Shown: piece by piece, positions 7,406-57,090 of the stretch | Numbering within the stretch: the first letter of the stretch is position 1 | How the letters are laid out: every line of letters starts with the position of its first letter | Assembly: GCA_034520945.1 (NCBI GenBank) | Contig: JAXHNB010000001.1 | Span: 1 to 64,000, forward strand | Source: Trueperaceae bacterium | GTDB lineage: Bacteria > Deinococcota > Deinococci > Deinococcales > Trueperaceae | Direction of reading: 5' to 3' | Length of the DNA: 64,000 nucleotides | The notes under the pieces: generated by a model | The model's input: only the letters and a program-made list of their open reading frames with translations | Database searches by the model: none | What the model was told of the DNA's origin: nothing | Program-made: the position numbers and the translations under genes

Positions 7406-8166
7406 TCAGAAACCTATCGCAGCGCCGCCGTCAACGCGCAGCACGGTGCCGTTGACGAAGCTCGGCAGCCTGGAGACGCCAAGAACACGGACGCCCAGCC
7501 GACCTCTTCTGGATCGCCGCGGCGCCTAGGGGTGTGCGTTCAAGGACCTTCGCGAGGCGCTCGAGGATCACTGTCCAGCGCCGTTCTGCCCATCTCGGTC
7601 ACGATGAAACCAGGCGCCACGCCATCGACGCGCACGCCTGAGCGGCCCCACTCGACGGCCAGTTGGTGAACGAGGCCCTGCAGCGCCGACTTGGACGCGG
7701 TGCATGCGGCCACCTGCTCGAGCCCGAAGAAGGCGGCCATAGACGTGATCATCTGGATGTCGCCCCATTTCCGCTGAACCATGCGCTGCGCACATGCGCG
7801 GGACATTGCGACCGCGCCTTTGAGATTGGTGGCGAGAACTTCGTCAAACTGCGCATCCGTGACCTCCAGGGAGGGAAGCTTCTGGTTGATTCCAGCGTTG
7901 TTCACCACAGTGCCGATCGGCCCGACGTCCCGTTCCAGCTCGGCGACGAAGTCCGGGATCGAGTCCAGGTCCGACACGTCGTGCACACGGGCCACGGCTG
8001 CTCCCCCGACGCGCTTCACCGTCTCGCGCAGCGGCGCCTCGCGGCGACCGGTCACGACCACGTGAGCGCCCCGCGACACGAAGCAAGAAGCGATCGCGCG
8101 GCCGATGCCGCTGCCGCCTCCAGTGATCAGTACGAAGTGGTGGTCGAACGCGAAGGGGTCGTTCAC
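7406..8166 (-). CDS. SDR oxidoreductase, gluconate 5-dehydrogenase-like (C-terminal frameshifts)
   Basis: TGGGSGIG, VNNAGI, VAPGFI, out-of-frame tail FVNGTVLRVDGGAAIGF; the catalytic YxxxK position reads CTASK. Confidence 0.8.
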
Positions 8167-9205: not shown

Positions 9206-9209
9206 CGAA

Positions 9210-10043
9210 TCAACCCTTCACGCCGCCGGCAGTGATGCCCTGAACAATGTAGCGCTGGAAGAGGACTACGAAGATGAGCGCGGGGATGGTGGTGAGGATT
9301 CCCGCGGCCGAGATCAGGTTCCAGCGCACGAATACATCCCCGACGAAGTCAGAAATCCCGACGGAGATGGTCTTGGATGCCGCACTCTGAGAGAAGGTGA
9401 GGGCGAAAAGGTACTCGTTCCACGTGAAGAGGAAGCTGACGATCGCCGCAGCGCCCAAGCCAGGCGCGGCGATCGGCATGGTGATGCGCCAAAGCGCCTG
9501 CAGGCGGGTCGCGCCGTCGATGAGCGCGGCGTCCTCGAGACTCCACGGAAGGTCCTTCATAAACCCCCAAGCGATCCAAATGAAGAACGGAAGGTTCAGC
9601 ATGAAGTTCACCAGCACCAGCGAGACGAGCGAGTCGATCGCTCCGAGCGCGCTAACCAACATGAAGAACGGCACGATCAGCGCGATTGGAGGAAGCAAGC
9701 GGATCGAGATGGTCGCCACCATGAGCGGTCGCCTGAAGGGGAAGCGGTAGCGCGCCATGGCGTAGGCGGCTGGAACGCCGAAGATCGCGCACAGCGTGAC
9801 AACCACGAGCGAAATGATCAACGTGTTCAGGAGGTAGCGGCTGTAAGCCTGGTTGAAGAGGACGTCGCGATATGCCTGCAGCGTGAAGTTCTCTGGCAGG
9901 TAGGTGATCGGCGACCGCGTCAACTCGACGACTGGCTTGAAGGAGGTGATGAACGTAAACAGGAACGGCACGAACACGAATACCAAGTAAACGCCCAGAA
10001 CGACCCAGGCGGCGATCTTCGCGCCGTCGACGCGCCGGCCCAT
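9210..10043 (-). CDS. carbohydrate ABC permease
   Basis: Intact ORF; LEDAALIDGA, FTWNEYLFA, GITAGGVKG. Confidence 0.92.
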   Translation of the reverse strand: MGRRVDGAKIAAWVVLGVYLVFVFVPFLFTFITSFKPVVELTRSPITYLPENFTLQAYRDVLFNQAYSRYLLNTLIISLVVVTLCAIFGVPAAYAMARYRFPFRRPLMVATISIRLLPPIALIVPFFMLVSALGAIDSLVSLVLVNFMLNLPFFIWIAWGFMKDLPWSLEDAALIDGATRLQALWRITMPIAAPGLGAAAIVSFLFTWNEYLFALTFSQSAASKTISVGISDFVGDVFVRWNLISAAGILTTIPALIFVVLFQRYIVQGITAGGVKG

Positions 10044-10918
10044 CAGAGCTCCACCCGAAGCAATCGCAGGTAGGCGACGACGAGCAGAATGCTTACGGCC
10101 AACATGAAGACCGAGGCGGCAGCCGCGACGCCGAAGTTGAAGCCCTTGAAAGCAGCGTCATAGATGAACTGGACCAGCAGCTCGGTCGCGTTGCCGGGGC
10201 CTCCGCCGGTCAGGACGGAGACGATGTCAAAGGTGCGGAACGCGAACATCGTCTGCAGCGCAAGCACGATCGAGATGGGTAGCGGAGGTTCGGGAGCGTG
10301 ATGTAACGCAATCGCTGGAAAGCGCTAGCCCCGTCGATGGAAGCGCTTTCGTAAAACTCCACTGGGATGGACTGCAGGCCAGCGTAGAGGATCAGCGCCA
10401 CGAAGGGGATACGAATCCAAGCGTCCGTGAATATCAGTACGCTCATCGCGGTCGGACCTTTCGTAAGCCAGCCGACGGGCTCAAGGCCGATCCGCTGGAG
10501 GACATCGTTCACGAGTCCGTACTCCGTATCGAGCGTCCACCGCCACATCATCGCGGCAGTGACGGGCGGAATGGCCCACGGCAGCAGGCTAATGCCCCGC
10601 ACCACGGTCACGAAACGGTCGATCTTCGCCAGGGACAGCGCGACCGCAAAGCCCACGAAAAAGAAGAGCGTCACCGAGCCGAAGGTGTAGATAACCGAGC
10701 GACCGAAGTCGCGCCAAAAGAGAGTGCTACGAAACACGCGCGCGTAGTTGTCCACTCCGACGAATTCCGGTTCAAAGGAGACGTCGAGGGAGACGAGGCT
10801 GGTACGTATGAGATTGCCGAATGGATAGCCTGACGATTCCGAGCAACAGTAGGACGCTAGGTAGGACGAGCAGGAGCGCGAACTTCTGCGGAGGAAGCCG
10901 GTTGAGCCAGTTAAGCAT
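10043..10918 (-). CDS. carbohydrate ABC permease (frameshifted)
   Basis: MLNWLNRL start; LLPWAIPP, AGLQSIPVEFYESASIDGA, FDIVSVLTGGGPG. Confidence 0.85.
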
Positions 10919-11005
10919 AAATGAACCTCACCGCATCCGTCGGTTCGAGCGGGAGGGCGTAGCGCCACCCACGGTGAGCAGCGCCACGCGCGATGGGTCG
11001 GTGGC

Positions 11006-12329
11006 TCAGTTGCTAGACATGATTTCGTCGATCGCGCTTTGGGCGTCGGCGAGTGCTTGCTCAACGGTCTTCGCTTGGGCAAGCGCGCTCTGGATCTGCC
11101 CGCCAAACACGTCGATCACCTCGGCCATCTGGGTGTAGTTCTCGCGGAGCGAGGCGTCGACGAGGTCGCTGTGCGCCTGAAGGTAGCCGGGTTCCAGCTC
11201 GGTCTCGGCGGCGGCCATGTCGTACACGTCGCGCACGAGCGTGTCGTTGCCCTCGAGAAGGAGCTCGTTGGCATGTGCCTGCTGGCTGCGCATGTAGTCG
11301 AGGAACAGCTTGGCGGCACCAATGTTCTCACTGTAGGCGTTGATAGCGAGAATCTGGAAGTCGCCCGGGGCCTTGCCGTCGGTCGCTTCGTCCCAGGAGG
11401 GTGGGGTCGTGAACGCGACGTCGTCGACGACGTTCGACTGTTCTGGGTTCGTCGCGCGGGCGAAGTGGTAGTCCCACTGCCCCATCATCGCGACCTGCCC
11501 GCCGACGAACAGGTCTCCGACCTCGGATTCCTTGAGCTGCGGCGCCGACGGCGGTACGACCTCGTACTCGTAGATCAGGTCGTGCAGGAACTGGAGTGCC
11601 GTTCGGGCCTCCTCGGTGTCGACACGCGGTTCACCATCATGCACGAGCCTGCCGTCCATCATGTAAAGGATCGATAGGAAGCTCTCGTACGCGGTGAAGT
11701 TGTCGCCCGCACCGAATGCAAAACCATAGACGTCGTCCGTGGTGAGGGCCTGAGCCGCCTCCACGAGCTCGTCCTTGGTTGTGGGTGGCGTCAAGCCAGC
11801 CTCCTCCAGAAGGCTCGGGCGATAGTAGAAGCCCCACTGCTGGCCGAGCTGCGGGACAGCGTAGTAGGAGCCGTTCACCTCGATATCGTCCCGCACCCAT
11901 GCGGGGTAGTGCGACCACATCTCCTCGGACCAGAGGTCGTCTACGTTTACGAGCCGACCGCCAGCGGCGAGGCGCACGTAGTTGCGCTCAGCCTGGAACA
12001 TGTCGGGCGATGCCGACCGGCTCAGTACGGTCGTGGCGATCTTCTGCGCCATGTCGTCGAATGCGACCACGATGTGGTCGACACTCACGCCAGTCAAGTT
12101 CTTGGTAGACGTCGCCGTTGCGGAGAGTGGCGGGGTCGAAGTCCATCGCTCCGTAGTTGAAGTGCGAGATCTCCTCGGTGTCGCCAACGAGTTCTTGCCA
12201 ACCGTCGGGCAACTGGTAGTTCGGATTGAACAAGCGGTCTTCAGCATCGGTGGTGAAGTCGACTTGCGCGGCCGCCAGGCTGGGAATGATGAGCGCGAGG
12301 GTCAGGACGAATAGCAATCTGTTCCGCAT
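11006..12329 (-). CDS. carbohydrate ABC substrate-binding protein (frameshift near 12100)
   Basis: Signal MRNRLLFVLTLALIIPSLAAAQ; GSYYAVP, FYYRPSLLEEAG, FVGGQVAM. Confidence 0.85.
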
Positions 12330-12484
12330 GGTGAACCCTTCCTACGGTCGAGGTCGGGGCCTTCCGAACTGCGTTACGAGCCCCAGTACAAAAACGATCA
12401 GCCAGAGAGCACGTACCTTGCTCGATTGCCACCTCCTTTCCATCGCCACATACGGCTATCGACGCTCGTTATTCACCTATCGGA

Positions 12485-12515
12485 TTGTATGATGATCGTA
12501 GTGCATGCTATACAA
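12485..12515. promoter_or_regulatory. candidate GntR/FadR operator in divergent promoter region
   Basis: Inverted half-sites TTGTAT-N19-ATACAA in an AT-richer spacer between the SBP gene and rraA-gntR. Confidence 0.35.
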
Positions 12516-12572
12516 GGTGTCGAGCGATCGGGCTAGTGCGCAGCGTTAGGTCAGAAAGGACGGTGCAGCGAG

Positions 12573-13232
12573 ATGGAATGGCACACCGACGCGGAGCTCT
12601 TCGAGTTGATCGAGGGCGAGCTGTTCACCGCCGTCATCGGGGATACGCTTGACGCGAACGGGTATCGACACCAGTTTCTGCCGCCGCGAATTCGCGGCCT
12701 GAAGAACTATGGGGTGGTCGCTGGCCGCGCTATGCCTGCGCTGGAGGCTGACGTCTTCGACGACCGCGAGCCGTTCGGCAAGATGCTCGACGCGCTCGAC
12801 AGCCTCGAATCCGGGGGATCTACATCGCGGCCGGCGGAACGCCTCGCTACGCGCTCTTCGGTGGTCTCGATGTCGATCGCTGCCCGAGCCCGCGGTGCCC
12901 GGGCTGCGATCCTCTGCGGCTTTCACCGCGACTCGCGGGAACTGCTCGAGAACAGCTTCCCCGTCTTCTCGTACGGCGCGTACGCGCAGGACCAACAGGT
13001 GCGTGGCCGCGTGATCGACTACCGAGTCCCGATCGAGATCGAAGGTGTGGCCGTCGCACCCGGCGACATCATCGTGGCCGATCTCGACGGTGTGGTCGTC
13101 TTACCAGCGGATGCGGAGACACGTATCGTCTACGACGCACTCCGGAAAGTGCGCACGGAGTCCGAGGTTCGCCGAGAGCTCGAGCGCGGCATGCTTGCTA
13201 AGGACGCGTTCGACGAATTCGGCGTACTCTGA
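12573..13232 (+). CDS. RraA/HMG aldolase family protein
   Basis: TAVIGDTLD, GFHRD, VAPGDIIVADLDGVVVLP; short internal segment appears shifted by compensating indels. Confidence 0.85.
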   Translation: MEWHTDAELFELIEGELFTAVIGDTLDANGYRHQFLPPRIRGLKNYGVVAGRAMPALEADVFDDREPFGKMLDALDSLESGGSTSRPAERLATRSSVVSMSIAARARGARAAILCGFHRDSRELLENSFPVFSYGAYAQDQQVRGRVIDYRVPIEIEGVAVAPGDIIVADLDGVVVLPADAETRIVYDALRKVRTESEVRRELERGMLAKDAFDEFGVL

Positions 13233-13278
13233 CGCCGGGGCGGTCACGGTAATTCCGGCCGTCCAACGATTGCGAAGG

Positions 13279-14017
13279 ATGGATCACGACGGCACCATAA
13301 ACCGATCCAGCTATCGAGCGCGACGCACGAGCCTCAGCGGGCAGGTCGTGAAACTCCTTCAGCGCTACATCATCGATCACGGCCTCAAGATCGGGGAGCC
13401 ACTCCCACCCGAACTCGAACTGGCGGAGCTCTTCGGGGTGAGCCGCACCGTGATCCGTGAGGGCATGAAGGCCCTGGAGGCTCTGGGCATCGTCGATGCG
13501 CAAAGCGGGCGGCGGCCCCGAGTTCAGCGGCCGTCCAGCGAACGTCCTGACGGCCTACTTCAGCAATGTCGTCCTCTTCGACAAGAACGCCGTAGCGGAG
13601 CTCCTCGAAGTTCGCGAAGCCCTCGAAACCTACGCCGTGCGCTTCGCCGCCCGCGACCGAAGCGATACCGACCTAGAGCGACTCATCACGATCCAGGTCC
13701 AAATGGCGGAGCACATCTTCGACGACAAGGCCGCATTCATCGATGAGGACGTCGAGTTCCACCGCTTGCTGGTTCAGATGAGCGGGAACACCATGCTCAC
13801 CTTTCTGGTGCAGGGCCTCCGCGACGCCACGAAGGAATCCATTGCCCGCGGCCTCGAGGCGCGACGGTCGAGAACCGAGCTCGAAAGCATCAACCAGGCA
13901 CACCACGCGATCCTTGAAGCGATTCGGGACCGAAACGAAGTCGCCGCAGTGAACGCCATGCATTCCGCACTTCCAGGACGCCATCGTGAACCTGTTGACC
14001 ATTCGGTAGCCCTCTAA
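13279..14017 (+). CDS. GntR/FadR family regulator (frameshift near 13500)
   Basis: LPPELELAELFGVSRTVIREGMKAL HTH; FCD motifs LEVREALE, DVEFH, HHAILEAI. Confidence 0.88.
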
Positions 14018-46141: not shown

Positions 46142-47566
46142 TCACCCGCGCGGCGCGGCGTCCGCGTCCACGACCTCGTCGCCCGTCCAGGCGCGCGCCA
46201 CGGCCCGGGCGTCCCGCACGCAGGCGTTCACGCCGGCGCCGCCGTACGCGGCGCCCACGAGCGCCAGCGGACCCAGCGCGGCGGCCCGCGCCCGCCAGCG
46301 AGACACCCGGGCGGGGTGCCCCACGAGCGGTTGGGGGATGGCCCGAGGCCAGGTGAGGGTGCGCACGTGGGTGGGCGGGGCGTTCACCCCGAGCGTGACG
46401 CGCAGGTCGCGCCGCGCCACGGCCAGCGCCTCGTCCGCGCCCATGCGGACCAACGCCGGGTCGCGGCGCCCGCCGGCCAGGACACGCAACAGGGCGGTTC
46501 CCTCCGGCGCCTGCCCGGGGAATAGGGTGGAGGCGAACAGCACGCCCAGGCTGCGGGCGCCCCGGCCGGCGGGGATCAGGTAGCCGAAGCCGCCCAGGGG
46601 ATGCGGCACGTCGACGCGCCGGTAGCCGAGCGCGATCACGCGCATGGGCGCGTAGGGAAGGGCGGCCAGTTCGTCGGCCAGCTCGGCGTCGTGGGGCCCC
46701 AGCAGCTCCGCCGCCGCGTGGGTCGGCACCGCCAGCGCGACGCGGCGGGCCCGCACCTCCTCGGCGCCTGCGCAGCGGAGCCGCCAGCCGTCACGCTCGC
46801 GCGTCAGGGCGTGCACGGGCGTGCCGGTCCGCAGCGCATCGCCCGCGGCGGCGGCCAGGGCGTCGGTGAAGGCCTGCATGCCGTCGGCCCCGAAGCCGTG
46901 GAGGCGTGGGCGTGGCGGCGCGTCGGCGGTCGATGCGTCAGCGTGCGGTGCCGCGGCCTGGGCCCGTTTCGTGCGGGCCCGGACGGCACGCAGCAGGCTG
47001 CCGTGCCTCCGCTCCATGGCACGCAGCTCGGGAAACGCCGCGTCCAGCGAGACCTCGCGCGGGTCGCCGCCCAGGACGCCCAGCACCAATGCTTCGCCCA
47101 GCGCGTCGGCGGCCGGACGCCCGAACCTGCGCGCGAGGAAGGCGTCGACGCTCTCCTCTTCGGTGCCCACGGGCGCCCACGGCTCGGCCAGCGCGATCGC
47201 CTTGCCAAGGGGGCCGAGCAGTTCGCTACGCAGCGCCTCCCGCGGCGACGTGGGCAGCGGGCGCAGCCCGCCGTCCCGGTAGATCCAACGCGTGCGGGCG
47301 GCTGGATCGGCGGGCCGTGGGTCCGCCCCCAGCGCCCGGGCGAGGGGGACGGCGCCGTCTGCGTCGTCCAGCACGCCGCTGGGCCCCCAGTCGGCGAGGT
47401 ACCCCTCGGCGCGGCTGCTCCGCGCTGCGCCGCCGGGGGCCTCGTCGGCCTCCAGCACGGCGATCCGCCACGACGGCCGGGCGCGCCGCAGCAGGGCGGC
47501 CAGCGCCAACCCGCTCACGCCGGCGCCTACCACGGCGGCGTCGAACGTCGGCTCGGGGTGCGTCAC
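46142..47566 (-). CDS. hemY: HemY-type protoporphyrinogen oxidase
   Basis: VVGAGVSGL, LEADEAPGG, GFGYLIP, WPRAIPQ, GAGVNACV. Confidence 0.9.
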   Translation of the reverse strand: MTHPEPTFDAAVVGAGVSGLALAALLRRARPSWRIAVLEADEAPGGAARSSRAEGYLADWGPSGVLDDADGAVPLARALGADPRPADPAARTRWIYRDGGLRPLPTSPREALRSELLGPLGKAIALAEPWAPVGTEEESVDAFLARRFGRPAADALGEALVLGVLGGDPREVSLDAAFPELRAMERRHGSLLRAVRARTKRAQAAAPHADASTADAPPRPRLHGFGADGMQAFTDALAAAAGDALRTGTPVHALTRERDGWRLRCAGAEEVRARRVALAVPTHAAAELLGPHDAELADELAALPYAPMRVIALGYRRVDVPHPLGGFGYLIPAGRGARSLGVLFASTLFPGQAPEGTALLRVLAGGRRDPALVRMGADEALAVARRDLRVTLGVNAPPTHVRTLTWPRAIPQPLVGHPARVSRWRARAAALGPLALVGAAYGGAGVNACVRDARAVARAWTGDEVVDADAAPRG

Positions 47567-47625: not shown

Positions 47626-48618
47626 TCAGGGGCGGCGGTACACGAAGGTGGACCGGATCACGTACGGCCAGGTGGGGCGGGGGTCTTCGCCGGTGAACAG
47701 GCGGTCCAGGACCAGGCAGCGCACCTGGTGCCAGCCGGGGCTCAGGGGTGGGGTGCGGGCCGGGATCAGGGCGGCCGTGCCGCGCGGGACCTTGCCGTAC
47801 CACAACAGGCGCCCCTCGAAGGCGGGGAACTGCCGGTCGTTTAACAGGCAGGTGAGGGCGTACGGCCCGTCGTGGCGCGCGGACTCGCCGTACCACAGGC
47901 CGAAGCGCCAGACCTCCTCGCCGGCCGGCAGCACGTGGATCGATGCCGGGGCCCGCGGCGTGCCGCGGTCGTAGAGGTAGGCGTCGGGCAGGGGGGCCTC
48001 GGCGCGGGTCGCCTCGGTGGACGCCAGGCCGGGCGGTGGTGGCCGTGCTTCGCCGAAGGCCACGCGACGCATGTCGGCCTGGTCGTACGCGTACGTGACG
48101 GCGTCGGCGGGGGAGAGGGGCTGGTCGGGGCCGGCTTCGCGGATCGCCTCGGGCACGGCGGGCGAGGGGTGAGGGGTCAGGTGCACGTCGAGCGCTGTGC
48201 CGGCGGGATGCGGGAGGTGAACGCTCCACGCCGCCGTTTCCCCACACGCAACGGTGCGGACCGGATCAGGCCCGTGGCGCTGCACGCCGTCGGCGAAGGC
48301 CAGCATGGCGACGTCCACGGGCTGTGGGACCGAGATCAGGCGGAAGGTCGCACGAAGCGAGGTTGCGTCCGCGTCACGCTTCGTGTCGCTGCCCACCGAG
48401 TAGCGGATCCGGTCGGGCTGCGGGTCGGCGCAGGGATCGCGTTGGGCGTCGGCAGGATGGCCCGCCGCGAGCAGCGCGGCGGATAAGAGCAGGGTACGTC
48501 CGACCTTCCTTGCGCGGCGCACCCGCCCCGCCCCCATGTCGGGGGGCGGGGCGCCAGGGCGCGTGAGGGCAAGCCGGAACAAGGGCGGAGATGCGGGCGT
48601 ACCGGGGGGTCGGCTCAT
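47626..48618 (-). CDS. hypothetical secreted protein
   Basis: Basic stretch then LLLSAALLAAGHPADA; beta-rich, four Cys; ATGA overlap with upstream gene (alternative start 48537). Confidence 0.7.
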   Translation of the reverse strand: MSRPPGTPASPPLFRLALTRPGAPPPDMGAGRVRRARKVGRTLLLSAALLAAGHPADAQRDPCADPQPDRIRYSVGSDTKRDADATSLRATFRLISVPQPVDVAMLAFADGVQRHGPDPVRTVACGETAAWSVHLPHPAGTALDVHLTPHPSPAVPEAIREAGPDQPLSPADAVTYAYDQADMRRVAFGEARPPPPGLASTEATRAEAPLPDAYLYDRGTPRAPASIHVLPAGEEVWRFGLWYGESARHDGPYALTCLLNDRQFPAFEGRLLWYGKVPRGTAALIPARTPPLSPGWHQVRCLVLDRLFTGEDPRPTWPYVIRSTFVYRRP

Positions 48619-49163
48619 CGGTCGTATGTTTCGTCGTACTCGGGAAAGTCCCCCGCGTTCTCGATCCCCTTGTGCCAGCCGTCCGCCCGCAAGGAGTACT
48701 CTTCGTACTCCTGGCAGGGGGCGCTGTACGACACCGAGGCCGAGATCGCCGAGATCGGGCCGTAGCTGTCCTCGAACGTCTGATTGCGCAGCACGCCGTT
48801 GGCGTACAGCTTGACGTCGGCCGCCAGATAGTAGGCAGAGCGGTTGGCGACGGTGGAGGCGTAGGCGTCGGCGCTCCAGGTGAAGAAATCGCTGTCGGGG
48901 TAGAAGCAGTCCATGGCGAACACGTTCAGGTCGGTGGCGGAGTCGTCGAGGTGGAACGGCTCGTCGTCGTCGTACCCTTCGTCGTACCCGTCATCGTCGT
49001 CCCCGCCCCAGCCGGCGACGGTACGTGCCAGCGCGTCGGACGGGGCCGGAACGGGCCCCTCGGCTGCGGCGAGGCCCGCCAGCAGCAGCGTGAGCGTGAG
49101 CAACGTGGCCGTCCACGCCAGGCGTGCGCCCGGCGCCACGTCTCGGTGGGGATGGGCGTTCAT
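48615..49163 (-). CDS. hypothetical secreted acidic, Tyr-rich protein
   Basis: Signal TLLTLTLLLAGLAAA; WGGDDDDGYDEGYDDDE; ATGA overlaps at both ends; GGGAGG RBS. Confidence 0.75.
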   Translation of the reverse strand: MNAHPHRDVAPGARLAWTATLLTLTLLLAGLAAAEGPVPAPSDALARTVAGWGGDDDDGYDEGYDDDEPFHLDDSATDLNVFAMDCFYPDSDFFTWSADAYASTVANRSAYYLAADVKLYANGVLRNQTFEDSYGPISAISASVSYSAPCQEYEEYSLRADGWHKGIENAGDFPEYDETYDR

Positions 49164-49684
49164 CGCGGGCCTCCCTTCAGGCCGAGCTGCCGGGCCAACG
49201 CCGGGTCGGCGCCGGGGTGAGAGACGAGGCGGCGCAGCTCGGCACGGCCGACACCGCGTCCCTGCGTCCGGGCCCAGGCGGCGCGCACCTGCCCCATGGT
49301 CACGCCGGCCGCGTCGAGGTGACGGCGCAGCGCCTCGGGACCGGCGTGGAGCAGCACGTCGCGCGTGGCGGGCGGAACCTGGTTCAGCACCGCGTCGTCC
49401 AGGCGCAGCAGGTTCAGGTCGCGGCCGTGCGACAACGTTCGCGGCAGGCCGGGCGGGAGGCGCTTGCCCCCCAGCAGGAAGGTGCCGTCCTCCGCGACGG
49501 TGATCTCACCGAGTTCGGCGAGGTCCAGGGTGCGCATCACCTCGGCGCGCGTCCAGGTGGGGTGCGGCCGGTCGGCCGTCTCCACTTCGGGGGCGTCGGG
49601 CGTGCCGCAGGCGGCCAGCATCACCGCGAGCGCGGCGAGGGCGACGGCGACGCGTGTACGCGTGGCGGGGGGTGTGCGTGTCAT
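49160..49684 (-). CDS. hypothetical lipoprotein
   Basis: VALAALAVMLAA-C lipobox; GGAGGG RBS. Confidence 0.75.
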   Translation of the reverse strand: MTRTPPATRTRVAVALAALAVMLAACGTPDAPEVETADRPHPTWTRAEVMRTLDLAELGEITVAEDGTFLLGGKRLPPGLPRTLSHGRDLNLLRLDDAVLNQVPPATRDVLLHAGPEALRRHLDAAGVTMGQVRAAWARTQGRGVGRAELRRLVSHPGADPALARQLGLKGGPR

Positions 49685-49712
49685 AGGGGTCCCTCCGTGA
49701 ACGACTCGGGGC

Positions 49713-51137
49713 TCAGGGTCGGCGTCTGCGTGGCGTCAGCGGCCTCACCCCCCTTCGGCGCGTCGCCCCGGCCGCCAGGGCCAGGGCGGGAAGGTCGAGG
49801 GTGCCGCCGAAACGGGCGTAGGGCGTGCGGGCGCGTGCCCAGGCGAGGTCGTGCACCAGGACGGCCGGGTCCCGCCCCGAGGTGTGGGCCACGGTGCGGC
49901 CGCGTGCGTCCAGCACGGTCGTGGGCCCGGTCGCGGTGACGAACAGCACGGGCGTGCCGTTCTCGGCGGCGCGGAGGCGCGCCACCGCGAGCTGCAGGTG
50001 CGGCATGGCGCTTCGCCCCGCGAAGGCGGCGTCCGACACGGCGACGAGCGCGTCCGCGTCGCGGGTGGCGGCGCGGATCTCGGCGGCGTACACCAGGTCG
50101 AAGCACACCGCCAGGGACAGCCGTCGTGGGCCGAACGTCACCTGCGCGGCCTCCGTGCCCGCTTCGAAGCGATCCTCGTGCCAAGGCACGGGATGACGCT
50201 TGACGTAGCGCACGGCGGCGTCGTCGGCCAGGTCGACCACGGCGTTGCGGAGCCCGGCATCGTCGCGAACCGCTGCCCCGACCAACACGGCGAACGGGGC
50301 CGTACCGAAGACGGGCGCCACGCGCGGGCCGGCGACGCCGGTGGGGGAGAGCGTCCCCTCCGGCCCAATGATCAGCCTGGCGCCCTGGCGCACGGCCCGC
50401 CGCAGCTGCCCGTCCAGGCGCGCCCGTAGGGCACGGCCCGCCTCCGGCCACCGCGCCGCCCAGGCGCGATCGGCCCGGCGGACGCCGGTCTGCAGCAGGG
50501 CGACGCGGGTGGTCGCGTCCCCCGGGGACGCGCGCAGCGTGCGCGGCGGCACGGCGAGGTGGGTCGCCAGCAGCAGCGCGGTCAGGCAGCCGAGCCACAT
50601 CGCGGGGCGCCGCAGGGTGGCCGCCCGTGGGCGCCGCGTCGCCAGCGGGAGGTCCGCCACCGCGAGCGCGGCCAGCCATGCCGCCACGCTGGTCGTGCTG
50701 ACGCCGGCGAGGGCGGCGGTCGGTCCCAGCGGCGTGGCGGCCACCAGGTAGCCGACCCGGACGAGCGGCAGGCCGCCGAGGTGGCCCCAGGCGGCTTCGA
50801 CGCTCAGCCAGGCCGCGGCGAAGCCCAGCGACGCCGCCTGCATGGAGGCGCCGCCGCGTAGGGCGCGGGCGTGGACCGCGCCGGCGAGGGCGAAGGGCGC
50901 GGCGACGGGCAGGGCCGCCAGCGGCGCCCACGGCCACACCTGCACGGCGCCGCCCGCCGTTACCGCCAGCGCGGATGCGACCGGCAGGGCGGACGCCGCG
51001 CAGGCCCCGAGGTAGCTGCGGGCGCGACGGGCGGCGTGCAGGGCCAACGCCAGCGCGGGCACCACCAGGATCGCGAGGGCCTCGTGGGCGGTTCCGAGCG
51101 CCATCGTTGCGGTGGAGGCCGCCAGAAGCAGACGCAT
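49713..51137 (-). CDS. apolipoprotein N-acyltransferase (Lnt)-like protein
   Basis: Multi-TM N-terminus; nitrilase triad IIGPEG, YVKRHPVP, AVCFD; LRAAENG. Confidence 0.8.
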   Translation of the reverse strand: MRLLLAASTATMALGTAHEALAILVVPALALALHAARRARSYLGACAASALPVASALAVTAGGAVQVWPWAPLAALPVAAPFALAGAVHARALRGGASMQAASLGFAAAWLSVEAAWGHLGGLPLVRVGYLVAATPLGPTAALAGVSTTSVAAWLAALAVADLPLATRRPRAATLRRPAMWLGCLTALLLATHLAVPPRTLRASPGDATTRVALLQTGVRRADRAWAARWPEAGRALRARLDGQLRRAVRQGARLIIGPEGTLSPTGVAGPRVAPVFGTAPFAVLVGAAVRDDAGLRNAVVDLADDAAVRYVKRHPVPWHEDRFEAGTEAAQVTFGPRRLSLAVCFDLVYAAEIRAATRDADALVAVSDAAFAGRSAMPHLQLAVARLRAAENGTPVLFVTATGPTTVLDARGRTVAHTSGRDPAVLVHDLAWARARTPYARFGGTLDLPALALAAGATRRRGVRPLTPRRRRP

Positions 51138-51730
51138 CAGCCCGCCTCCGGCACGAAGACGAGGCCGGTCCATGCGGCGCGGAAGTCGTCCAGGGCGAGG
51201 CCGCGCAGGCCGCGCGCCGGGTCGGCCAGCAGCACGGCGCGGTCACTCAGGCGCCGCACCACCACCAGGTGGCCGGGCGCGGCAGGGGTGGGCGGCGCCA
51301 ACTCGGCGGCGAAGGGGCGGGGCAGGGCCGGCAGGTCGGTCAGGCGGGCGTGCAGCCAGCGGCCTTGGATCCCCACCTCGGCCGCCAGCGCCGCGACGTC
51401 GTCGAGGCGGAGGCCGGCGGGTCCCAGGCGGTCGCCGGCGCGGACGGCCAGATCCCCTTGGTCGAGGGACCGCCCGCGCGACGCGGCCAGCATGGCGACG
51501 ACGGCCAGGCCACAGTCGGTGGGCCGCCGTTGCAGCACCACGCCCTGGGTGCCGAGCGATAGGCTGCCGTCCGGCCGCTGGAGCGACGGAGGCAGCGGGC
51601 GCGCCAGCGGCGCCCAGGCCAGCACCCATGGCAGCAGGAACGCCAGCAGCCGGGCGGGGCGCGCCCGGCCGTGCGGTGCGCGGCGGGCAGGCCGGGGCGT
51701 GGGCTGGGGGGCGGGGCGCGGGAACGGCAT
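51137..51730 (-). CDS. stand-alone C39-family cysteine peptidase
   Basis: VLQRRPTDCGLA, GHLVVV, LLADPARG, FRAAWTG; N-terminal hydrophobic signal. Confidence 0.85.
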   Translation of the reverse strand: MPFPRPAPQPTPRPARRAPHGRARPARLLAFLLPWVLAWAPLARPLPPSLQRPDGSLSLGTQGVVLQRRPTDCGLAVVAMLAASRGRSLDQGDLAVRAGDRLGPAGLRLDDVAALAAEVGIQGRWLHARLTDLPALPRPFAAELAPPTPAAPGHLVVVRRLSDRAVLLADPARGLRGLALDDFRAAWTGLVFVPEAG

Positions 51731-51926: not shown

Positions 51927-53051
51927 TCAGTCCGTCGCGTAGCCACCCTTCTTCAAAGACGGGCTGACGTTGGTGCGCTTGTACGGTGCCACCGGCTTCA
52001 GGACGTTGCGGCACTGCGGGTTGACGCAGCCGGGGCAGCGCAGGCCGTACTGGGTGCTGCACGCTTCGCCGCGCTTGAGGTGCTCGGCGACGATCTCGCT
52101 CAGCGCGTCCTGGAAGCGCGGCATGCCGTTGAGGGCCGGGGCGCGCACGTAGTTGTCGATGCCGACCTTCTCGGCCAGCTCGCCGTACTCGATGTCCAGT
52201 TCGTGCAGCGTCTCGATGTGGTCGCTGGTGAAGGCGATCGGGACGACCAGGACGTTCTTGCGCCTCTTGGCGCCCAGCTGCTCGATGACCGACTCGGTCG
52301 ACGGGCCCAGCCACGGCACGGGACCCACCTCGGACTGGTAGGCGATCAGGTACTCGTAGGCGTAGCCCAGCCGCTGCATCACCTCGTGCGTGGTGGCGCC
52401 GACCTCGGCCGGGTAGGGATCGCCCCGGTTGACGACGCTCATCGGCAGCGAGTGGGCGCTGAACACGATCGCCACGTCCTCGCGATCCTCGTCCGAGAAC
52501 TCGGCCAGGCCCTGGCGCACCGTTTCGGTCATGGCGTCCACGAAGGTGGCGTGCGTCGGCCAGCGGTCGATCACGCTCCATGTGAACGCGTCCTGCAGCC
52601 CCACGCGGCGGGCGGCCCGCCACAACTCGTTCAGCGACGAGCCGGTGGTCGCGCAACTGAACTGCGGGTACTGCGTGAACGCCACCGCCCGGGTGATGCC
52701 GTCGTCGTGCATCGCCTTCAGGGCATCCTCGCTGAGCGGGTCGATGTAGCGGAACGCCACGTAGTGGCGGTGCGGGGCCGTCTGGGGCGAGAGGGTGTCC
52801 AGGCGCTCGCACATGCCGCGGCCTTGGAGCTCGGTCCAGTCCAGGATGGGGCTGCCGCCGCCGATGTCCTGGTAGTTGCTCTGCACGCTCTTGGTGCGCC
52901 TGTTGGCGATGAACGGCCCCAGCCAACGCTGCGCCGGCAGCTGAATGATCTCCCGGTCGGCGAACAGCCGGAGCAGGAACGGGTTGACCTCGTCCAGGCG
53001 CTTCGGCCCACCGAGGTTCATCATCACGATTCCGGTACCACCTTGGCTCAT
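51927..53051 (-). CDS. hemH: ferrochelatase
   Basis: MNLGGP, GGGSPI, FSAHSLP, QSEVGPVPWLGP, AFTSDHIETL, C-terminal CPGCVNPQC. Confidence 0.97.
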   Translation of the reverse strand: MSQGGTGIVMMNLGGPKRLDEVNPFLLRLFADREIIQLPAQRWLGPFIANRRTKSVQSNYQDIGGGSPILDWTELQGRGMCERLDTLSPQTAPHRHYVAFRYIDPLSEDALKAMHDDGITRAVAFTQYPQFSCATTGSSLNELWRAARRVGLQDAFTWSVIDRWPTHATFVDAMTETVRQGLAEFSDEDREDVAIVFSAHSLPMSVVNRGDPYPAEVGATTHEVMQRLGYAYEYLIAYQSEVGPVPWLGPSTESVIEQLGAKRRKNVLVVPIAFTSDHIETLHELDIEYGELAEKVGIDNYVRAPALNGMPRFQDALSEIVAEHLKRGEACSTQYGLRCPGCVNPQCRNVLKPVAPYKRTNVSPSLKKGGYATD

Positions 53052-53109
53052 GCTGGCATCCTCTCCGAACCCGTGCATCGTCGCGTCACGGGGGTGCGAT
53101 GTGCGCTGA

Positions 53110-54186
53110 TCACGCGCCTTCGGGCGTCCGCGGGCGCTCGCTCGCGGCGAGCTCGCGCTCGATCTCGTCTCGCGCCGCCTCCGGCGTCAGGGCGGCCCAG
53201 TCGCGCGGTTGGTAGAACCGCAGCGCCCGGGCCTCCTCCGTCCCCGCCGCCGGCCTCGCGTCGAAGCGCCAGGACGCCTCGGGCGGCATGCTCATCAATA
53301 TCGCCTCGACGTTGCCGCGCGTCTGCAAGCCGAACAGCGTTCCCCGGTCGTACACCAGGTTGAACTCGACGTAGCGCCCGCGGCGCAGGCGTTGCCAGTC
53401 CTTCTCCCGCGCCCCCCACGGCGCCGAGGCGCGGCGGCGGACCAGCGGCAGGTACGCCTCCAGGACGGTGGCGAGGCCGTCCTCGACGAACGCCAGGTCG
53501 GCGGCGAAGTCGCCCGCGCCGGGGGGCGAGAGCTCGTCGAAGAAGATGCCGCCCACCCCCCGCATCTCGCCCCGATGCCGGATCGTGAAGTAGTCGTCGC
53601 AGGTTCGCTTCATCACGGCGTGATCGGCCTGCGGGTGCCGGTCGCACTGCGCCTTCAGCGCCTGGTGGAACTGCACCACGTCCGCTTCGCGGGGGTGGCT
53701 GGGGGTCGCGTCCGCCCCGCCGCCGAACCACCACACGCCGCTGTCCTCGCCCCGCCCCACCTCGAAGTAGCGGTAGTTGGCGTGAAACGCGCACACGTGG
53801 GGGTTCGTCGGGTGCAACACCATGCTGAGCCCCGTCGCGAAGAACGGCCGCCCCTCCGTGCCGGGATGCTGCGCCGCCAGGCTGGGCGGAACCTCGGCGC
53901 CGTGCACGGCCGACATGTTCACGCCGCCCCGCTCGAACGCCGCGCCGCCCTCGATCACGCGGGCGCGACCGCCCCCACCACCGGGCCGATCCCAGGCGTA
54001 CGGCCGGAAGGTGCCGCCGTCCTCCGCCTCCAGCGCGGAGACGATGCGCTCCTGCCACGTCCGCATGGTGCGCGCCACGCGTTCGCGACGCGTGCCGGGC
54101 GCGCCGGCCAGGCGGGCGACGTCGGCCAACGCCTCGGCGTCGGCCTCCCGGGTCCACGGCGCGTCGCCGGCGCCCCCGCCCCTCAC
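53110..54186 (-). CDS. hemF: oxygen-dependent coproporphyrinogen III oxidase
   Basis: FERGGVNMS, HANYRYF, WFGGGAD, RGVGGIFFD, RRGRYVEFNLVYDRGT. Confidence 0.96.
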   Translation of the reverse strand: MRGGGAGDAPWTREADAEALADVARLAGAPGTRRERVARTMRTWQERIVSALEAEDGGTFRPYAWDRPGGGGGRARVIEGGAAFERGGVNMSAVHGAEVPPSLAAQHPGTEGRPFFATGLSMVLHPTNPHVCAFHANYRYFEVGRGEDSGVWWFGGGADATPSHPREADVVQFHQALKAQCDRHPQADHAVMKRTCDDYFTIRHRGEMRGVGGIFFDELSPPGAGDFAADLAFVEDGLATVLEAYLPLVRRRASAPWGAREKDWQRLRRGRYVEFNLVYDRGTLFGLQTRGNVEAILMSMPPEASWRFDARPAAGTEEARALRFYQPRDWAALTPEAARDEIERELAASERPRTPEGA

Positions 54187-55223
54187 GCCGGCGCCTCCGC
54201 GGTCGCGGCGTGACGGTCGAAGCTTCGCACCGTATCGACGAGGACCTCGACGCGGGCGGGATCCACCATCGGCAGCATGCCGTGGCCCAGGTTGAACACG
54301 TGCGCACCGCCCAGGCCCGCACGCAGCACGCGCACGGCCTCATTGCGAACCGCCTCCGCGGGCCCCAACAGCGCGGCGGGGTCGAGGTTTCCCTGCAGGG
54401 CCGGCACGCGGCCGCCCACCGCGGCGCGCACCTGGTCCAGCGGGGTGCGCCAATCGACGCTCAGCGCCTCCAGCGGCAGGGTGGCGAAGGCGTCGTAGAG
54501 GTGCGCCGCCCCCACCGCGATGTAGATCCGCGGCACGCCCGTGTCGGCCAGGGCCTCCAGCACGCGGGCCGCGTAGGGCCGGCCGAAGGCGGCGTAGGTG
54601 CGGGCGTCGTGCAGGCCGGCCCAGGAGTCGAACAGCTGCACCGCCTGCGCCCCCGCCTCGATCTGGGCGCGCAGGTAGGCGATCGTCGTGTCGGTCAGCT
54701 TGTCCAGCAGCCGGTGCGCCAGCGCGGGCCGGGCCCGCAGCAGGCCGCGAAGCTGGGGGTACTCCTTGCTGCCGCCGCCCTCCACCAGGTAGGTGGCCAG
54801 CGTCAGCGGCGCGCCGCCGAACCCGATGAGCGGCACCTGCAGCTCGCCGCGCAGCAGGCGGATCGCTTCGGGCACGAACGGCGCGATCTCGCCCGCGTCC
54901 GGCACGCGGAGCGCGTCCACGTCGGCGTCTTGGCGGACCGGCCGGCGGATGATGGGGCCGGGCTGGAAGTCCACGTCGACGCCCATCGCCGGGAGCGGCG
55001 TCATGATGTCCTGGAACAGGATCGCGGCGTCCAGGCCGTAGCGCCGCACCGGTTGCAACGTCACCTCCGCCGCCAGCTCGGGGGTGCGGGCCAGCTCCCA
55101 GAACGCGTGGCGCTCCTTGAGGGCGCGGTACTCCGGCAGGTGCCGTCCGGCCTGCCGCATCAGCCAGATCGGCGCGCGCTCGGTATCTTCGCCGCGCACC
55201 GCGCGCAGGAACAGGTCGTTCAC
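54183..55223 (-). CDS. hemE: uroporphyrinogen decarboxylase
   Basis: PIWLMRQAGR, QLFDSW, LQGNLDP, NLGHG. Confidence 0.96.
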   Translation of the reverse strand: MNDLFLRAVRGEDTERAPIWLMRQAGRHLPEYRALKERHAFWELARTPELAAEVTLQPVRRYGLDAAILFQDIMTPLPAMGVDVDFQPGPIIRRPVRQDADVDALRVPDAGEIAPFVPEAIRLLRGELQVPLIGFGGAPLTLATYLVEGGGSKEYPQLRGLLRARPALAHRLLDKLTDTTIAYLRAQIEAGAQAVQLFDSWAGLHDARTYAAFGRPYAARVLEALADTGVPRIYIAVGAAHLYDAFATLPLEALSVDWRTPLDQVRAAVGGRVPALQGNLDPAALLGPAEAVRNEAVRVLRAGLGGAHVFNLGHGMLPMVDPARVEVLVDTVRSFDRHAATAEAPA

Positions 55224-55930
55224 GATTCCTCCTCGGGCGTGAAGCGGTAACCCACGCCCCACACGGTGTGGAAGTGCACCGGGCGGGCCGGGTCTGGCTC
55301 CAACGTCTTGCGGAGCCGCATCACCACGTTGTCGACGGTGCGGCTGCTGGGGAAGGCGTCGCTGCCCCACACCTCGTCCAGGATATCGTCGCGGCTGACC
55401 ACCTCGCCGGGTCGCGAGGCCAGCAGCCGCAGGATGCCGATCTCGCGCTCGCCCAGCGTCTCCTGCCGCCCGTCCGCAAGCGTCGCCGTCCAGGCGCGCA
55501 GGTCGACCTCGTGGCCGGCGAAGCGGATCGCGCGCCGCCCCTCGCCCCAGCCGCGGCGCCGCAGCACCGCCTCCACCCGCAACAGGAACTCCGGCAGGTG
55601 GAACGGCTTCGCCAGGTAGTCGTCGCCCCCGGCGGCCAGGCCCTGCACGCGCTCCTCGGGGCGGCCCTTCGCGGAGAGGAACAGGACGGGCGTCTCGTCC
55701 CCCTCCTCGCGCCGGATCCGGCACACCTCGAGCCCGTCCACGTGCGGCAGCATCACGTCGAGCACCACCAGGTCGAAGCCCCCCTCGCGCCAGCGCGCCA
55801 ATCCCTCGCCGCCGTCGTGCGCCAGCACGATCTCGTGCCCCTCCTCGCGCAGGTTGTCGGCCAGGACCTCGGCCAGGCCGCGCTCGTCCTCGATCACCAG
55901 CACGCGGGGACGCCGGCCGGGCGCGCTCAC
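55220..55930 (-). CDS. OmpR-family response regulator
   Basis: VLVIEDE, LDVMLP, DDYLAKPF, TVWGVGYRF. Confidence 0.95.
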   Translation of the reverse strand: MSAPGRRPRVLVIEDERGLAEVLADNLREEGHEIVLAHDGGEGLARWREGGFDLVVLDVMLPHVDGLEVCRIRREEGDETPVLFLSAKGRPEERVQGLAAGGDDYLAKPFHLPEFLLRVEAVLRRRGWGEGRRAIRFAGHEVDLRAWTATLADGRQETLGEREIGILRLLASRPGEVVSRDDILDEVWGSDAFPSSRTVDNVVMRLRKTLEPDPARPVHFHTVWGVGYRFTPEEES

Positions 55931-57090
55931 CGTCCCTCCTCCGCCGCCGGGGTGGAGGGGGCGTCCCTCGCCTGGCCCGCGGCCTCGACGCGGCGCGGGA
56001 ACACCACCGTGAAGCGCGTGCCCCGGCCCGAGGGGGCGTCTTGGACGCGCATCCATCCGTTCATCGCCTCGACGGTGCTTCGTGCCAGGTGCAGGCCGAG
56101 GCCGGTCCCGATCGCGCGCCGCGTGGACTCGTCCCCGCTGCGGTAGAAACGCCCGAAGATCTTGTCACGTTCGGCCGCGGGCACGCCCACCCCCTCGTCG
56201 TCCACGTGCAGCATCACCACGTCGGGCCCCTCCTCCAGCCGGACCGTCACCGGCTTGTCCTCGCCGGGGCTGTACTTGACGGCGTTGTCCAACAGGTTGG
56301 AGAGCACCATCGCGAAGGCGTCCTCGTCCAGCGACACGGGAAGCCGCCCCTCGGGGGGTACCCGCCGCACCGTCGCCCCGCGCGCCTCCAGGCCGGGCCG
56401 CGCCTCCTCCACCAGGCGGCGTACGACCGCGCCGAGGTCGACGGGCCGAAGATCGGTGGCGAGGGGCGCCTGCTCCAGCCGCGCCGCCGCCAGCACCTGT
56501 TCGGAGGTCCGCTCGAGCCGGTCCAGTTCGCCCACCATGCGCGTCAGGTAGTCGCGGCGGCGCTCCGGCGACAGGTCCCGCACCTGCGCCGTCTCGACCA
56601 GCAGGCGCAGCGTGGCCAGCGGCGTTTTGAACTCGTGGGTGATCGCGGACAGGAAGTTCTGCTGACTGCGCTTCAGCGCCCGCTCCTCCCGGAGCGACCG
56701 CGCGATCAGCGCCAGCATCGCCAGCATCACCAGCACGAAGAAGGGGCCCTCCCACGCGAACATGCGCAGGTAGCCGCGCTGCTCGCGCAGGAACGCCTCC
56801 CGCCGCGCCGGGTCGACCCGGAACGTGCCGTCCTGAAACGTCAGGTGCGGCTGCTGCGACAGGACCGCGTCGCGAAGCGCGGGGTCGTGACCCGACGTGT
56901 CCCACGCGGCCTGCGCCACCGCGGCGTCGTTGCGCCACGCCGCCAACCGCGACTCCGAGACCCCCTCGATGTAACTCCGCTGGAACAGCAGCCACCACAC
57001 CACCTGCGCCAGCAGGAACACCACGATCACCGCGAAGGCGATCCGCGTGGTGGTGCGGGAGGAGAGGCGGGGCCAGCGGGGCGGGCGCAT
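55927..57090 (-). CDS. sensor histidine kinase
   Basis: Two TMs; THEFKTPL, NLLDNAVKYS, DEGVG, GTGLGL. Confidence 0.95.
   Translation of the reverse strand: MRPPRWPRLSSRTTTRIAFAVIVVFLLAQVVWWLLFQRSYIEGVSESRLAAWRNDAAVAQAAWDTSGHDPALRDAVLSQQPHLTFQDGTFRVDPARREAFLREQRGYLRMFAWEGPFFVLVMLAMLALIARSLREERALKRSQQNFLSAITHEFKTPLATLRLLVETAQVRDLSPERRRDYLTRMVGELDRLERTSEQVLAAARLEQAPLATDLRPVDLGAVVRRLVEEARPGLEARGATVRRVPPEGRLPVSLDEDAFAMVLSNLLDNAVKYSPGEDKPVTVRLEEGPDVVMLHVDDEGVGVPAAERDKIFGRFYRSGDESTRRAIGTGLGLHLARSTVEAMNGWMRVQDAPSGRGTRFTVVFPRRVEAAGQARDAPSTPAAEEGR

Follow-up and report, generated by a model that had tools for sequence, protein, structure and literature searches.

Introduction

The mitochondrial ferrochelatase (FECH) of human and other animals (structures 2qd3 and 1hrk) is a homodimer that has a C-terminal extension in its interface and four cysteine ligands of a [2Fe-2S] cluster, presumably C196, C403, C406 and C411 in human numbering, with H263 and E343 as the presumed numbers of the catalytic residues; these numbers fit the chain offsets of the alignment reported below. 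Here we analyse a ferrochelatase gene (ppfC, also hemH) of this type on the minus strand of a stretch of 64,000 nucleotides from a Trueperaceae bacterium of the phylum Deinococcota (GenBank assembly GCA_034520945.1, contig JAXHNB010000001.1, positions 1 to 64,000; ‘the window’ below denotes this whole stretch). Taking the evidence as a whole, we consider it probable that the gene encodes a protoporphyrin ferrochelatase (PpfC) of the mitochondrial type, which would be the sole terminal haem enzyme of its organism, inherited within its family and standing outside the eukaryotes.

Shepherd, Dailey and Dailey are said to have described, in 2006, a [2Fe-2S] ferrochelatase of Myxococcus xanthus with its four cysteines in an internal insertion. 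The window protein is like that enzyme in being a bacterial PpfC with a cluster, predicted in the present case, and differs from it in having no internal insertion relative to human FECH and in having ligands of the C-terminal kind. That prokaryotic PpfC can have such C-terminal [2Fe-2S] sites is established (PMC8529089, PMC13564367). The [2Fe-2S] ferrochelatases of Caulobacter crescentus and Mycobacterium tuberculosis, listed in PMC8529089, share with the window protein three C-terminal ligands and one internal ligand, a likeness drawn from their description. The role of the cluster is called undefined even in the ferrochelatases that have been studied (PMC8529089, PMC13564367). In the 2021 survey by Weerth, Medlock and Dailey, none of the five Deinococcus-Thermus species and none of the eight Chloroflexi species counted had a motif (PMC8529089), and the word ‘Truepera’ is absent from the text and three supplementary files of that paper.

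Mitochondrial ferrochelatase has been termed ‘eukaryotic in origin’ (PMC5115734) and has been assumed to be alphaproteobacterial in source (PMC8529089). A literature search, with subscription papers outside its scope (among them those of Dailey from 2002 and 2006 and that of Oborník and Green from 2005), found no paper pairing ‘ferrochelatase’ with ‘Truepera’ and none describing bacterial relatives of the mitochondrial enzyme. A bacterial PpfC with cluster ligands at its C-terminus is an already known kind of enzyme; judged by sequence, what the present gene would add is a pathway switch at the level of a family and a clade shared with mitochondrial FECH.

Results

Family assignment and conserved residues

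The minus-strand open reading frame (ORF) 53078..51927 of the window comprises 383 amino acids, to which residue numbers refer unless stated otherwise. It matches Pfam PF00762 over profile positions 2-317 of 317 (E 5.7e-109, 364.4 bits, cut-off 27), with the match ending at residue 334, and NCBIfam TIGR00109 (hemH) with 347.8 bits (cut-off 124.6). Comparison with the sequences of the PDB by phmmer shows that the best match is human FECH (2qd3_A; E 4.2e-131, 440.6 bits), aligned over residues 15-359 with one gap of a single residue, followed by the yeast-type entries 1l8x (3e-100) and 7l78 (1.9e-98). The Bacillus-type coproporphyrin ferrochelatases (CpfC) in the PDB match at about 5e-39 (137 bits for B. 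subtilis CpfC) and align over residues of about 64-334 only, in agreement with the claim of the earlier note on this DNA that enzymes of the B. subtilis type lack the C-terminal tail. At the other end of the protein, residues 15-63 align with human FECH and the matches to CpfC structures begin at residue 62-65; these are alignment spans. PpfC is described as having an active-site ‘lip’ loop and CpfC as being without it (PMC13564367). A look-up in the ESM Atlas returned nothing beyond generic bacterial ferrochelatase clusters.

The sequence strings quoted in the earlier note were all recovered, namely QYPQFSCATTGSSLN from residue 136, WSVIDRWPTH, FSAHSLPMSVVNRGDPYP from residue 206, LSPQTAPH and the C-terminal CSTQYGLRCPGCVNPQC, whose CPGCVNPQC part begins at residue 348. 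Cys142, Cys348, Cys351 and Cys356 align with the human cysteines of QYPQYSC and CPLCVNPVC, and their spacing equals that of the human protein apart from one residue; His209 aligns with the histidine of human FSAHSLP, and Glu289 with the glutamate of DHIETL. The C-x2-C-x4-C tail is present in 29/29 loci of relatives from the family and in 79/80 further loci, the remaining one (L117) running into masked bases. In an alignment of 43 bacterial and eukaryotic relatives that are 40-94% identical, the three tail cysteines are invariant, the internal cysteine is at least 90% conserved, H200 (374-residue numbering, as for the next residue) is at least 90% conserved and E280 is invariant. Because the pattern is conserved across the loci of relatives and across this alignment, we do not regard it as due to chance. 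After the last cysteine the tail continues as CRNVLKPVAPYKRT..., which is conserved in Trueperaceae, in contrast to CRET... in the human chain. By its sequence, then, the window gene is a ferrochelatase of the mitochondrial FECH type with the four human ligand cysteines and the catalytic histidine and glutamate, and the earlier note's description of a eukaryotic (mitochondrial) type of sequence that has the ligand pattern of the animal [2Fe-2S] site holds with respect to the human match, the profiles and the four aligned cysteines.

We expect the enzyme to insert iron(II) into protoporphyrin IX around His209 and Glu289; the probable ligands of a [2Fe-2S] cluster are Cys142 of the core and Cys348, Cys351 and Cys356 of a 49-residue C-terminal extension. 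It is also conceivable that the four conserved cysteines hold no [2Fe-2S] cluster, and bind zinc or form disulfides instead, or that a cluster is present and is purely structural and dispensable. The metal content is predicted from the ligand pattern, and in bacterial enzymes the loss of the cluster does not always end activity (PMC8529089, PMC13564367). Nevertheless, each of the four positions has its counterpart among the human ligands, the cysteines are invariant or nearly so in the bacterial and eukaryotic relatives, and all characterised ferrochelatases named in PMC8529089 that have a C-terminal motif of this sort carry a cluster, so that we hold a protein of this kind without a cluster, or with a dispensable one, to be rather improbable.

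The C-terminal extension would form part of a homodimer interface, as in human FECH, where this arrangement is known from solved structures. Modelling of the window protein as a homodimer gave a score of 0.84 (0.85, 0.84 and 0.84 in the separate runs) compared to 0.00 for the best of three controls, with a partner pLDDT (predicted local distance difference test) of at least 92 and at least 97% of the contacts common to the runs; the calibration of this score (20/30 solved same-chain pairs, 1/23 single-chain proteins) is rough for the present case, with its custom alignment and riding ligand. The interface of the model includes the tail residues 332-342 and 358-364 (374-residue numbering). The homodimer proposed in the earlier note is thus predicted, by the model only, with the extension at the interface.

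For the start of translation we favour the ATG at 53051 (Met10), which gives a product of 374 amino acids, because a GGAGAGG site 8 nt 5' of this codon, recognised by sequence, the 374-residue form in the database record and the starts of the orthologues, which begin at the position of Met10, all agree. No comparable Shine-Dalgarno-like site was seen upstream of the ATG at 53078. The conserved core begins 5 residues past Met10, and the alignment with human FECH agrees with the absence of a transit peptide claimed in the earlier note; the lack of an N-terminal targeting sequence is one of the differences from the human protein, along with the location of the gene in a hemE-hemF-hemH operon and its branching outside the eukaryotes. 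The codons are also host-like, as the earlier note had stated: GC content at third codon positions (GC3) is 0.944, within the range of the neighbouring genes (0.88-0.97), and the total GC of the gene (0.677) is lowered by codon positions 1 and 2.

Haem genes around the ferrochelatase gene

The ferrochelatase gene lies in a group of haem genes on the same strand (Table 1). The stop of hemE overlaps the listed start of hemF by 4 bases, and hemE, hemF and hemH would be co-transcribed. The nearest solved relative of the product of hemY is 2ivd (PgoX; E 1.6e-69), which we take to be a Myxococcus xanthus protein, compared to 1.1e-27 for the B. subtilis-type 3i6d. The Myxococcus xanthus origin of 2ivd is supported in PMC4231631. 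Together with a hemY of the PgoX type, the three genes would make up a complete oxygen-dependent protoporphyrin branch, in which the ferrochelatase would carry out the final step of a HemE, HemF, PgoX and PpfC route.

Table 1. Features of the ferrochelatase gene and its surroundings in the window (positions are those of the window; residue numbers are those of the 383-residue frame)
Feature	Position	Strand	Basis
ppfC/hemH, protoporphyrin ferrochelatase (predicted), 374 aa	51927..53051, stop codon included	-	ORF, PF00762, TIGR00109, human FECH match
Shine-Dalgarno-like GGAGAGG	53060..53066	-	sequence
Cys142 codon (Cys133 in 374-aa numbering), internal putative cluster ligand	52653..52655	-	alignment to human QYPQYSC
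Cys348-x2-Cys351-x4-Cys356, C-terminal putative cluster ligands	52011..52037	-	alignment to human CPLCVNPVC
His209 codon	52452..52454	-	alignment to catalytic His of human FSAHSLP
Glu289 codon	52212..52214	-	alignment to Glu of human DHIETL
C-terminal extension past the ferrochelatase core, residues 335-383	51927..52076	-	Pfam match and CpfC structures end at about residue 334
hemF, oxygen-dependent coproporphyrinogen III oxidase, directly upstream of hemH	53110..54186, start uncertain	-	PF01218 E 1.4e-110; NF003727 364.5 bits (cut-off 297); PDB CPOX matches
hemE, uroporphyrinogen decarboxylase	54183..55250, start uncertain, open frame to 55724	-	PF01208 E 4.6e-116; TIGR01464 372.3 bits
hemY/pgoX, protoporphyrinogen oxidase, 4.4 kb downstream of hemH	46142..47500, start approximate	-	PF01593; TIGR00562 196.8 bits (cut-off 97.85)
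Peptidase C39-domain protein, between hemH and hemY	51137-51730	-	Pfam
Lnt-like CN-hydrolase, between hemH and hemY	49713-51173	-	Pfam

The source genome (3.47 Mb in 10 contigs, 97.4% complete) has a single PF00762 ferrochelatase match and a single HemF, and no ChdC was found in it at this completeness; given that no ChdC was found, the protoporphyrin pathway is expected in this organism. If the ferrochelatase were instead a CpfC working in a coproporphyrin pathway, as in other Deinococcota, it would fit the pattern of a phylum in which ChdC occurs in 155/201 genomes, and the presence of a HemY-family oxidase would not conflict with it, as these enzymes can be CgoX or PgoX. Several results speak against such a coproporphyrin enzyme: ChdC was found neither in the source genome nor in any of the 40 genomes of its family, HemF is present and its gene is adjacent, the hemY product is far nearer to the PgoX 2ivd than to 3i6d, and the protein itself matches human PpfC with 440 bits and B. 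subtilis CpfC with 137 bits. We therefore hold a CpfC to be very unlikely, and from the sequences of these genes, with HemF and a PgoX-type HemY present, ChdC not found and the pattern of the family in agreement, the enzyme is best read as a PpfC.

Gene order was compared in 67 loci of the Trueperaceae type, for which at most 4 kb of flank per locus was considered and some of which are cut by contig ends. A hemF gene on the same strand was present in 42/67, hemE together with hemF in 38/67 and hemY in 17/67. In several relatives hemY directly follows hemH; in others a gene for a C39-domain protein comes next, sometimes with that for the Lnt-like protein. In five Deinococcus, Thermus and related loci hemE is also found directly upstream of the ferrochelatase gene. 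As hemE adjoins the ferrochelatase gene in loci of the Deinococcus/Thermus type too, this suggests that the ferrochelatase was replaced inside a pre-existing hem cluster. The protoporphyrin branch would stand where other Deinococcota have the coproporphyrin branch with CpfC and ChdC.

Just upstream of hemE, ORFs resembling a response regulator and a histidine kinase (window 55220-57090, minus strand) were recognised by eye from their translations. The upstream response-regulator gene is kept in 39/67 loci, and this conserved regulator could control the haem cluster.

Distribution in Deinococcota and other bacteria

We compared the occurrence of the ferrochelatase, HemF and ChdC in a sample of 201 genomes of Deinococcota, including 40 from the Trueperaceae and 92, 57, 9 and 2 from the families f2, f3, f4 and f5, respectively. 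Among the Trueperaceae, 35/40 genomes have an orthologue that is 67-82% identical to the window protein, and one more has a fragment of only 34 residues; the ferrochelatase matches in f2-f5 are only 26-36% identical. HemF was found in 31/40 Trueperaceae genomes, in 0/92, 0/57 and 0/9 genomes of f2, f3 and f4, and in 2/2 of f5. Conversely, ChdC was found in 0/40 Trueperaceae genomes, in 91/92, 57/57 and 7/9 genomes of f2, f3 and f4, and in 0/2 of f5. The Trueperaceae as a family thus carry the protoporphyrin branch, and their Deinococcota relatives the coproporphyrin branch. The ferrochelatase of Deinococcus and Thermus, presumably a CpfC, shares with the window protein the Pfam family and an adjoining hemE, whereas it is shorter and without a tail in the five loci compared and occurs with ChdC and without HemF. 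The window protein did not group with these ordinary Deinococcus/Thermus HemH proteins, the outcome that the earlier note had named as refuting its reading, either by identity or in the trees described below.

Only 22/92 genomes of f2 gave a match to the window ferrochelatase, although 91/92 have ChdC; the f2 genomes probably do have the enzyme, in a form so distant from this query that the first-look filter passed it over. Within the Trueperaceae, genus g8 showed a ferrochelatase in 4/7 genomes (one of them a fragment), HemF in 0/7 and ChdC in 0/7; an oxygen-independent oxidase may be in use in this genus, or parts of the pathway may have been lost.

The best named relatives of the window protein are from Truepera radiovictrix (81-82% identical) and from metagenome-assembled genomes (MAGs) of Trueperaceae. 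The enzyme is a family-wide Trueperaceae trait, old, and not a recent import from a eukaryote. These data also bear on a eukaryotic contamination or an assembly chimera, which could be suspected from a likeness to human FECH that is unusually high for a bacterial protein. An identical 374-residue protein is on record on a contig of 417,592 bases, the gene has a bacterial operon setting and a GC3 of 0.94, and the orthologues in the family include those of single-contig genomes and of the Truepera radiovictrix contigs of about 3.26 Mb; contamination or a chimera is therefore extremely improbable. The suggestion of the earlier note that the gene is relevant to the origin of FECH or to horizontal transfer is affected in two ways: a one-off transfer into this genome does not agree with the presence of the gene in 35/40 family genomes, and the gene may be relevant to the origin of FECH.

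Beyond the family, a HMMER scan of 1.84 billion representatives gave best matches that are 41-58% identical, many of them with N-terminal extensions. Naming of the 50%-identity representatives by cluster look-up succeeded for 11/30 proteins, and the names obtained are those of eukaryotes: a crayfish, Fonticula, the jakobid Andalucia, the rhizarian Guttulinopsis, several fungi, a myxozoan and an orthonectid, in addition to oomycetes. The same type of ferrochelatase was found in 12 loci labelled as Chloroflexota (Roseilinea, Brachytrichaceae, Bellilinea, Thermoflexales, Anaerolineae and others), and the seven of these that were aligned are 56-65% identical to the window protein. The type is rare in this phylum, being present in 2/251 sampled genomes, one of which is the centre genome and was chosen for having the gene; the other genomes, including four flagged as unpublished (G350, G243, G432 and G378), have matches that are at most 37% identical, or none. 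MAG proteins of the same type are labelled as Myxococcales (58% identical) and Gemmatimonadaceae (66%). For comparison, identity to the window protein is 29-30% for three alphaproteobacterial enzymes, 28% for that of E. coli and 39% for that of a cyanobacterium.

Two metagenome loci with a ferrochelatase of the eukaryote type (L135 and L154) have a GC content of 0.69-0.73, are densely coding and are bacterial. Their neighbours, judged by eye, resemble a gene for glutamyl-tRNA reductase and one for a response regulator of the LuxR type, a context unlike the Trueperaceae operon.

Phylogeny

The main trees were inferred under LG+C20 PMSF (posterior mean site frequency) with a careful maximum likelihood (ML) search, and support is given as ultrafast bootstrap/SH-aLRT (Shimodaira–Hasegawa-like approximate likelihood ratio test). 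The first tree comprised 63 rows drawn from 83, leaving out 10 long-branch or short rows (P0218, P0156, Intoshia P0177, Thelohanellus P0168, P0231, P0163, P0159, P0155, P0149 and P0147), 5 outgroup rows, 3 Chloroflexota, 1 Trueperaceae and 1 oomycete. The second tree, of 64 rows, was made from this set by removing seven rows and adding eight named ones, among them three alphaproteobacterial, one E. coli and one cyanobacterial.

In both trees a eukaryote-type clade was recovered with high support (100/97 with 63 rows, 100/98 with 64 rows). It contains the Trueperaceae, eukaryotic mitochondrial FECH, some Chloroflexota, and the Myxococcales and Gemmatimonadaceae MAGs; the alphaproteobacterial, E. 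coli and cyanobacterial/plastid-type enzymes belong to the outgroup. The three alphaproteobacterial anchors are encoded on plasmids or chromids, have a very long branch and may not represent their class. The Trueperaceae form a group with a support of 99/98. The named eukaryotes (animals, fungi, Fonticula, a jakobid, a rhizarian and oomycetes) are monophyletic (99/94 with 63 rows, 99/97 with 64 rows), with the Trueperaceae outside them, and a protein without a presequence, P0134, is found at the base of the clade (98/94 and 100/93). In the 63-row tree the Chloroflexota and Trueperaceae group together (96/84), and the Myxococcales MAG and two long-branch proteins are the weakly supported nearest neighbours of the eukaryotes; for one of the latter, P0151, a similarity search gave nothing closer than 46% identity. 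In the 64-row tree the eukaryotes, the Trueperaceae, two Chloroflexota groups, the Myxococcales MAG and two long rows form a polytomy.

Approximately unbiased (AU) tests rejected a clade of Trueperaceae and opisthokonts (p = 0.009, log-likelihood difference 36), as well as a grouping of Trueperaceae and Chloroflexota with the eukaryote group that contains the oomycetes (p = 0.008, difference 21.6); both groups were chosen after the trees had been seen, which weakens these p-values. The position ‘close to the opisthokont clade’ given in the earlier note is contradicted by the first of these tests and by the monophyly of the eukaryotes without the Trueperaceae in the two ML trees. In a FastTree tree of 142 rows, in which the Deinococcus/Thermus-type ferrochelatases are far from the Trueperaceae proteins, the bacterial group was nested among the eukaryotes; this nesting was not upheld by the site-heterogeneous model or by the AU tests.

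If bacteria had received the gene in an ancient transfer from a stem or early eukaryote, and it had then spread among them, the likeness to FECH would be a derived one. Such a transfer could account for the patchiness of the type in bacteria, where it is dominant only in the Trueperaceae and otherwise known from 2/251 Chloroflexota and from single Myxococcales and Gemmatimonadaceae MAGs, and the nesting in the FastTree tree points the same way; the polytomy of the 64-row tree leaves room for the bacterial lines as a monophyletic sister group of the eukaryotes, an arrangement that would fit a transfer in either direction. We nevertheless consider a eukaryotic source unlikely: under the better model the eukaryotes are monophyletic and no named bacterium falls inside them, both AU tests, with groups named post hoc, reject the alternatives, the presequence-free P0134 branches lowest in the clade, and there is neither a remnant of a presequence nor foreign codon usage in the window gene.

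Some rows inside the eukaryote clade carry no label. Metagenome loci nearest to one such protein, P0123, are 61-62% identical, have a GC content of 0.32-0.43 and sparse ORFs, and contain ferrochelatase frames with N-terminal extensions; the scan did not recover P0123 itself. The low GC, sparse ORFs and N-terminal extensions of these loci support, as opposed to prove, that the unlabelled rows are probably eukaryotic. Two records filed under animals, P0279 and P0287, head the match list of a protein whose other named kin are oomycetes; they are a Cordylochernes scorpioides entry (‘FECH, partial’, 649 aa) and an Acipenser sinensis record marked UNVERIFIED_CONTAM, and probably stem from fused models or from contamination of animal assemblies. 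A ferrochelatase from a MAG labelled Roseobacter sp. pairs tightly with one from Chloroflexota (100/99), reflecting either a transfer or a mis-binned contig.

Other observations in the window

The three remaining ORFs between hemH and hemY have no Pfam matches. At window positions 7800-14000 the GC content is 0.62-0.64, compared to 0.71 window-wide, and this stretch encodes an ABC transporter of the sugar type (a solute-binding protein and two permeases), an RraA-like aldolase and a GntR regulator. The same stretch has the N- and C-terminal domains of a zinc alcohol dehydrogenase in separate ORFs (8705-9205 and 7844-8662, respectively), which may be one gene broken by a frameshift.

Discussion

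The sequence, the conserved residues, the gene context, the distribution in the family and the position in the trees all point to a mitochondrial-type PpfC in the Trueperaceae, and several observations weigh against this reading or limit it. Five unrelated ORFs (window 47626-51730, minus strand) separate hemH from hemY. The cluster and the substrate are inferred from sequence, and the dimer from a model that may, through likeness alone, echo the solved human FECH dimer. Bacterial ferrochelatases that bear a cluster can keep their activity without it (PMC8529089, PMC13564367), as might the window protein. Nor does every genome of the family show the whole module: a ferrochelatase match is absent from 4/40 and HemF was not matched in 9/40, so that either the module is not universal in the Trueperaceae or some assemblies are incomplete. 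Proteins from MAGs labelled as Gemmatimonadaceae and Deltaproteobacteria and a soil-metagenome protein lie inside the Trueperaceae group, which indicates transfer or mis-binning and an inheritance that was not purely vertical. Finally, the branching order of the bacterial lines and the eukaryotes within the clade differs between the two trees (96/84 for Chloroflexota with Trueperaceae in one, a polytomy in the other).

With regard to the deeper history of the gene, we tentatively suggest, with somewhat less than even confidence, that prokaryotic relatives of the gene from which mitochondrial ferrochelatase arose survive in the Trueperaceae and in a few other scattered bacterial lines (some Chloroflexota, and MAGs labelled as Myxococcota and Gemmatimonadota), and that the site and the tail were complete in bacteria first. 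If so, the animal-type site Cys-x205/206-Cys-x2-Cys-x4-Cys and the dimer-forming tail would predate the eukaryotic acquisition. The donor would not have been an alphaproteobacterium of the sampled kinds, and eukaryotes would not have acquired the final step of haem synthesis by the simple mitochondrial inheritance that is assumed in PMC8529089. Eukaryotic PgoX have been placed as descendants of PgoX of a deltaproteobacterial type (PMC10740692), and we draw a parallel, no more, between that placement and the Myxococcus-like HemY in the window.

For work on the enzyme itself, a protein without a presequence that aligns almost free of gaps with human FECH and comes from Truepera, a genus that can be cultivated, would lend itself well to spectroscopic, mutational and structural studies of the cluster. 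The bacterial lineages named here may likewise be used in tests of where mitochondrial ferrochelatase and its cluster site arose. With a mitochondrial-type PpfC inherited within the Trueperaceae, the terminal haem pathway would have switched cleanly within a single phylum, which matters for the annotation of haem genes in Deinococcota and for ideas on how one route comes to replace another.

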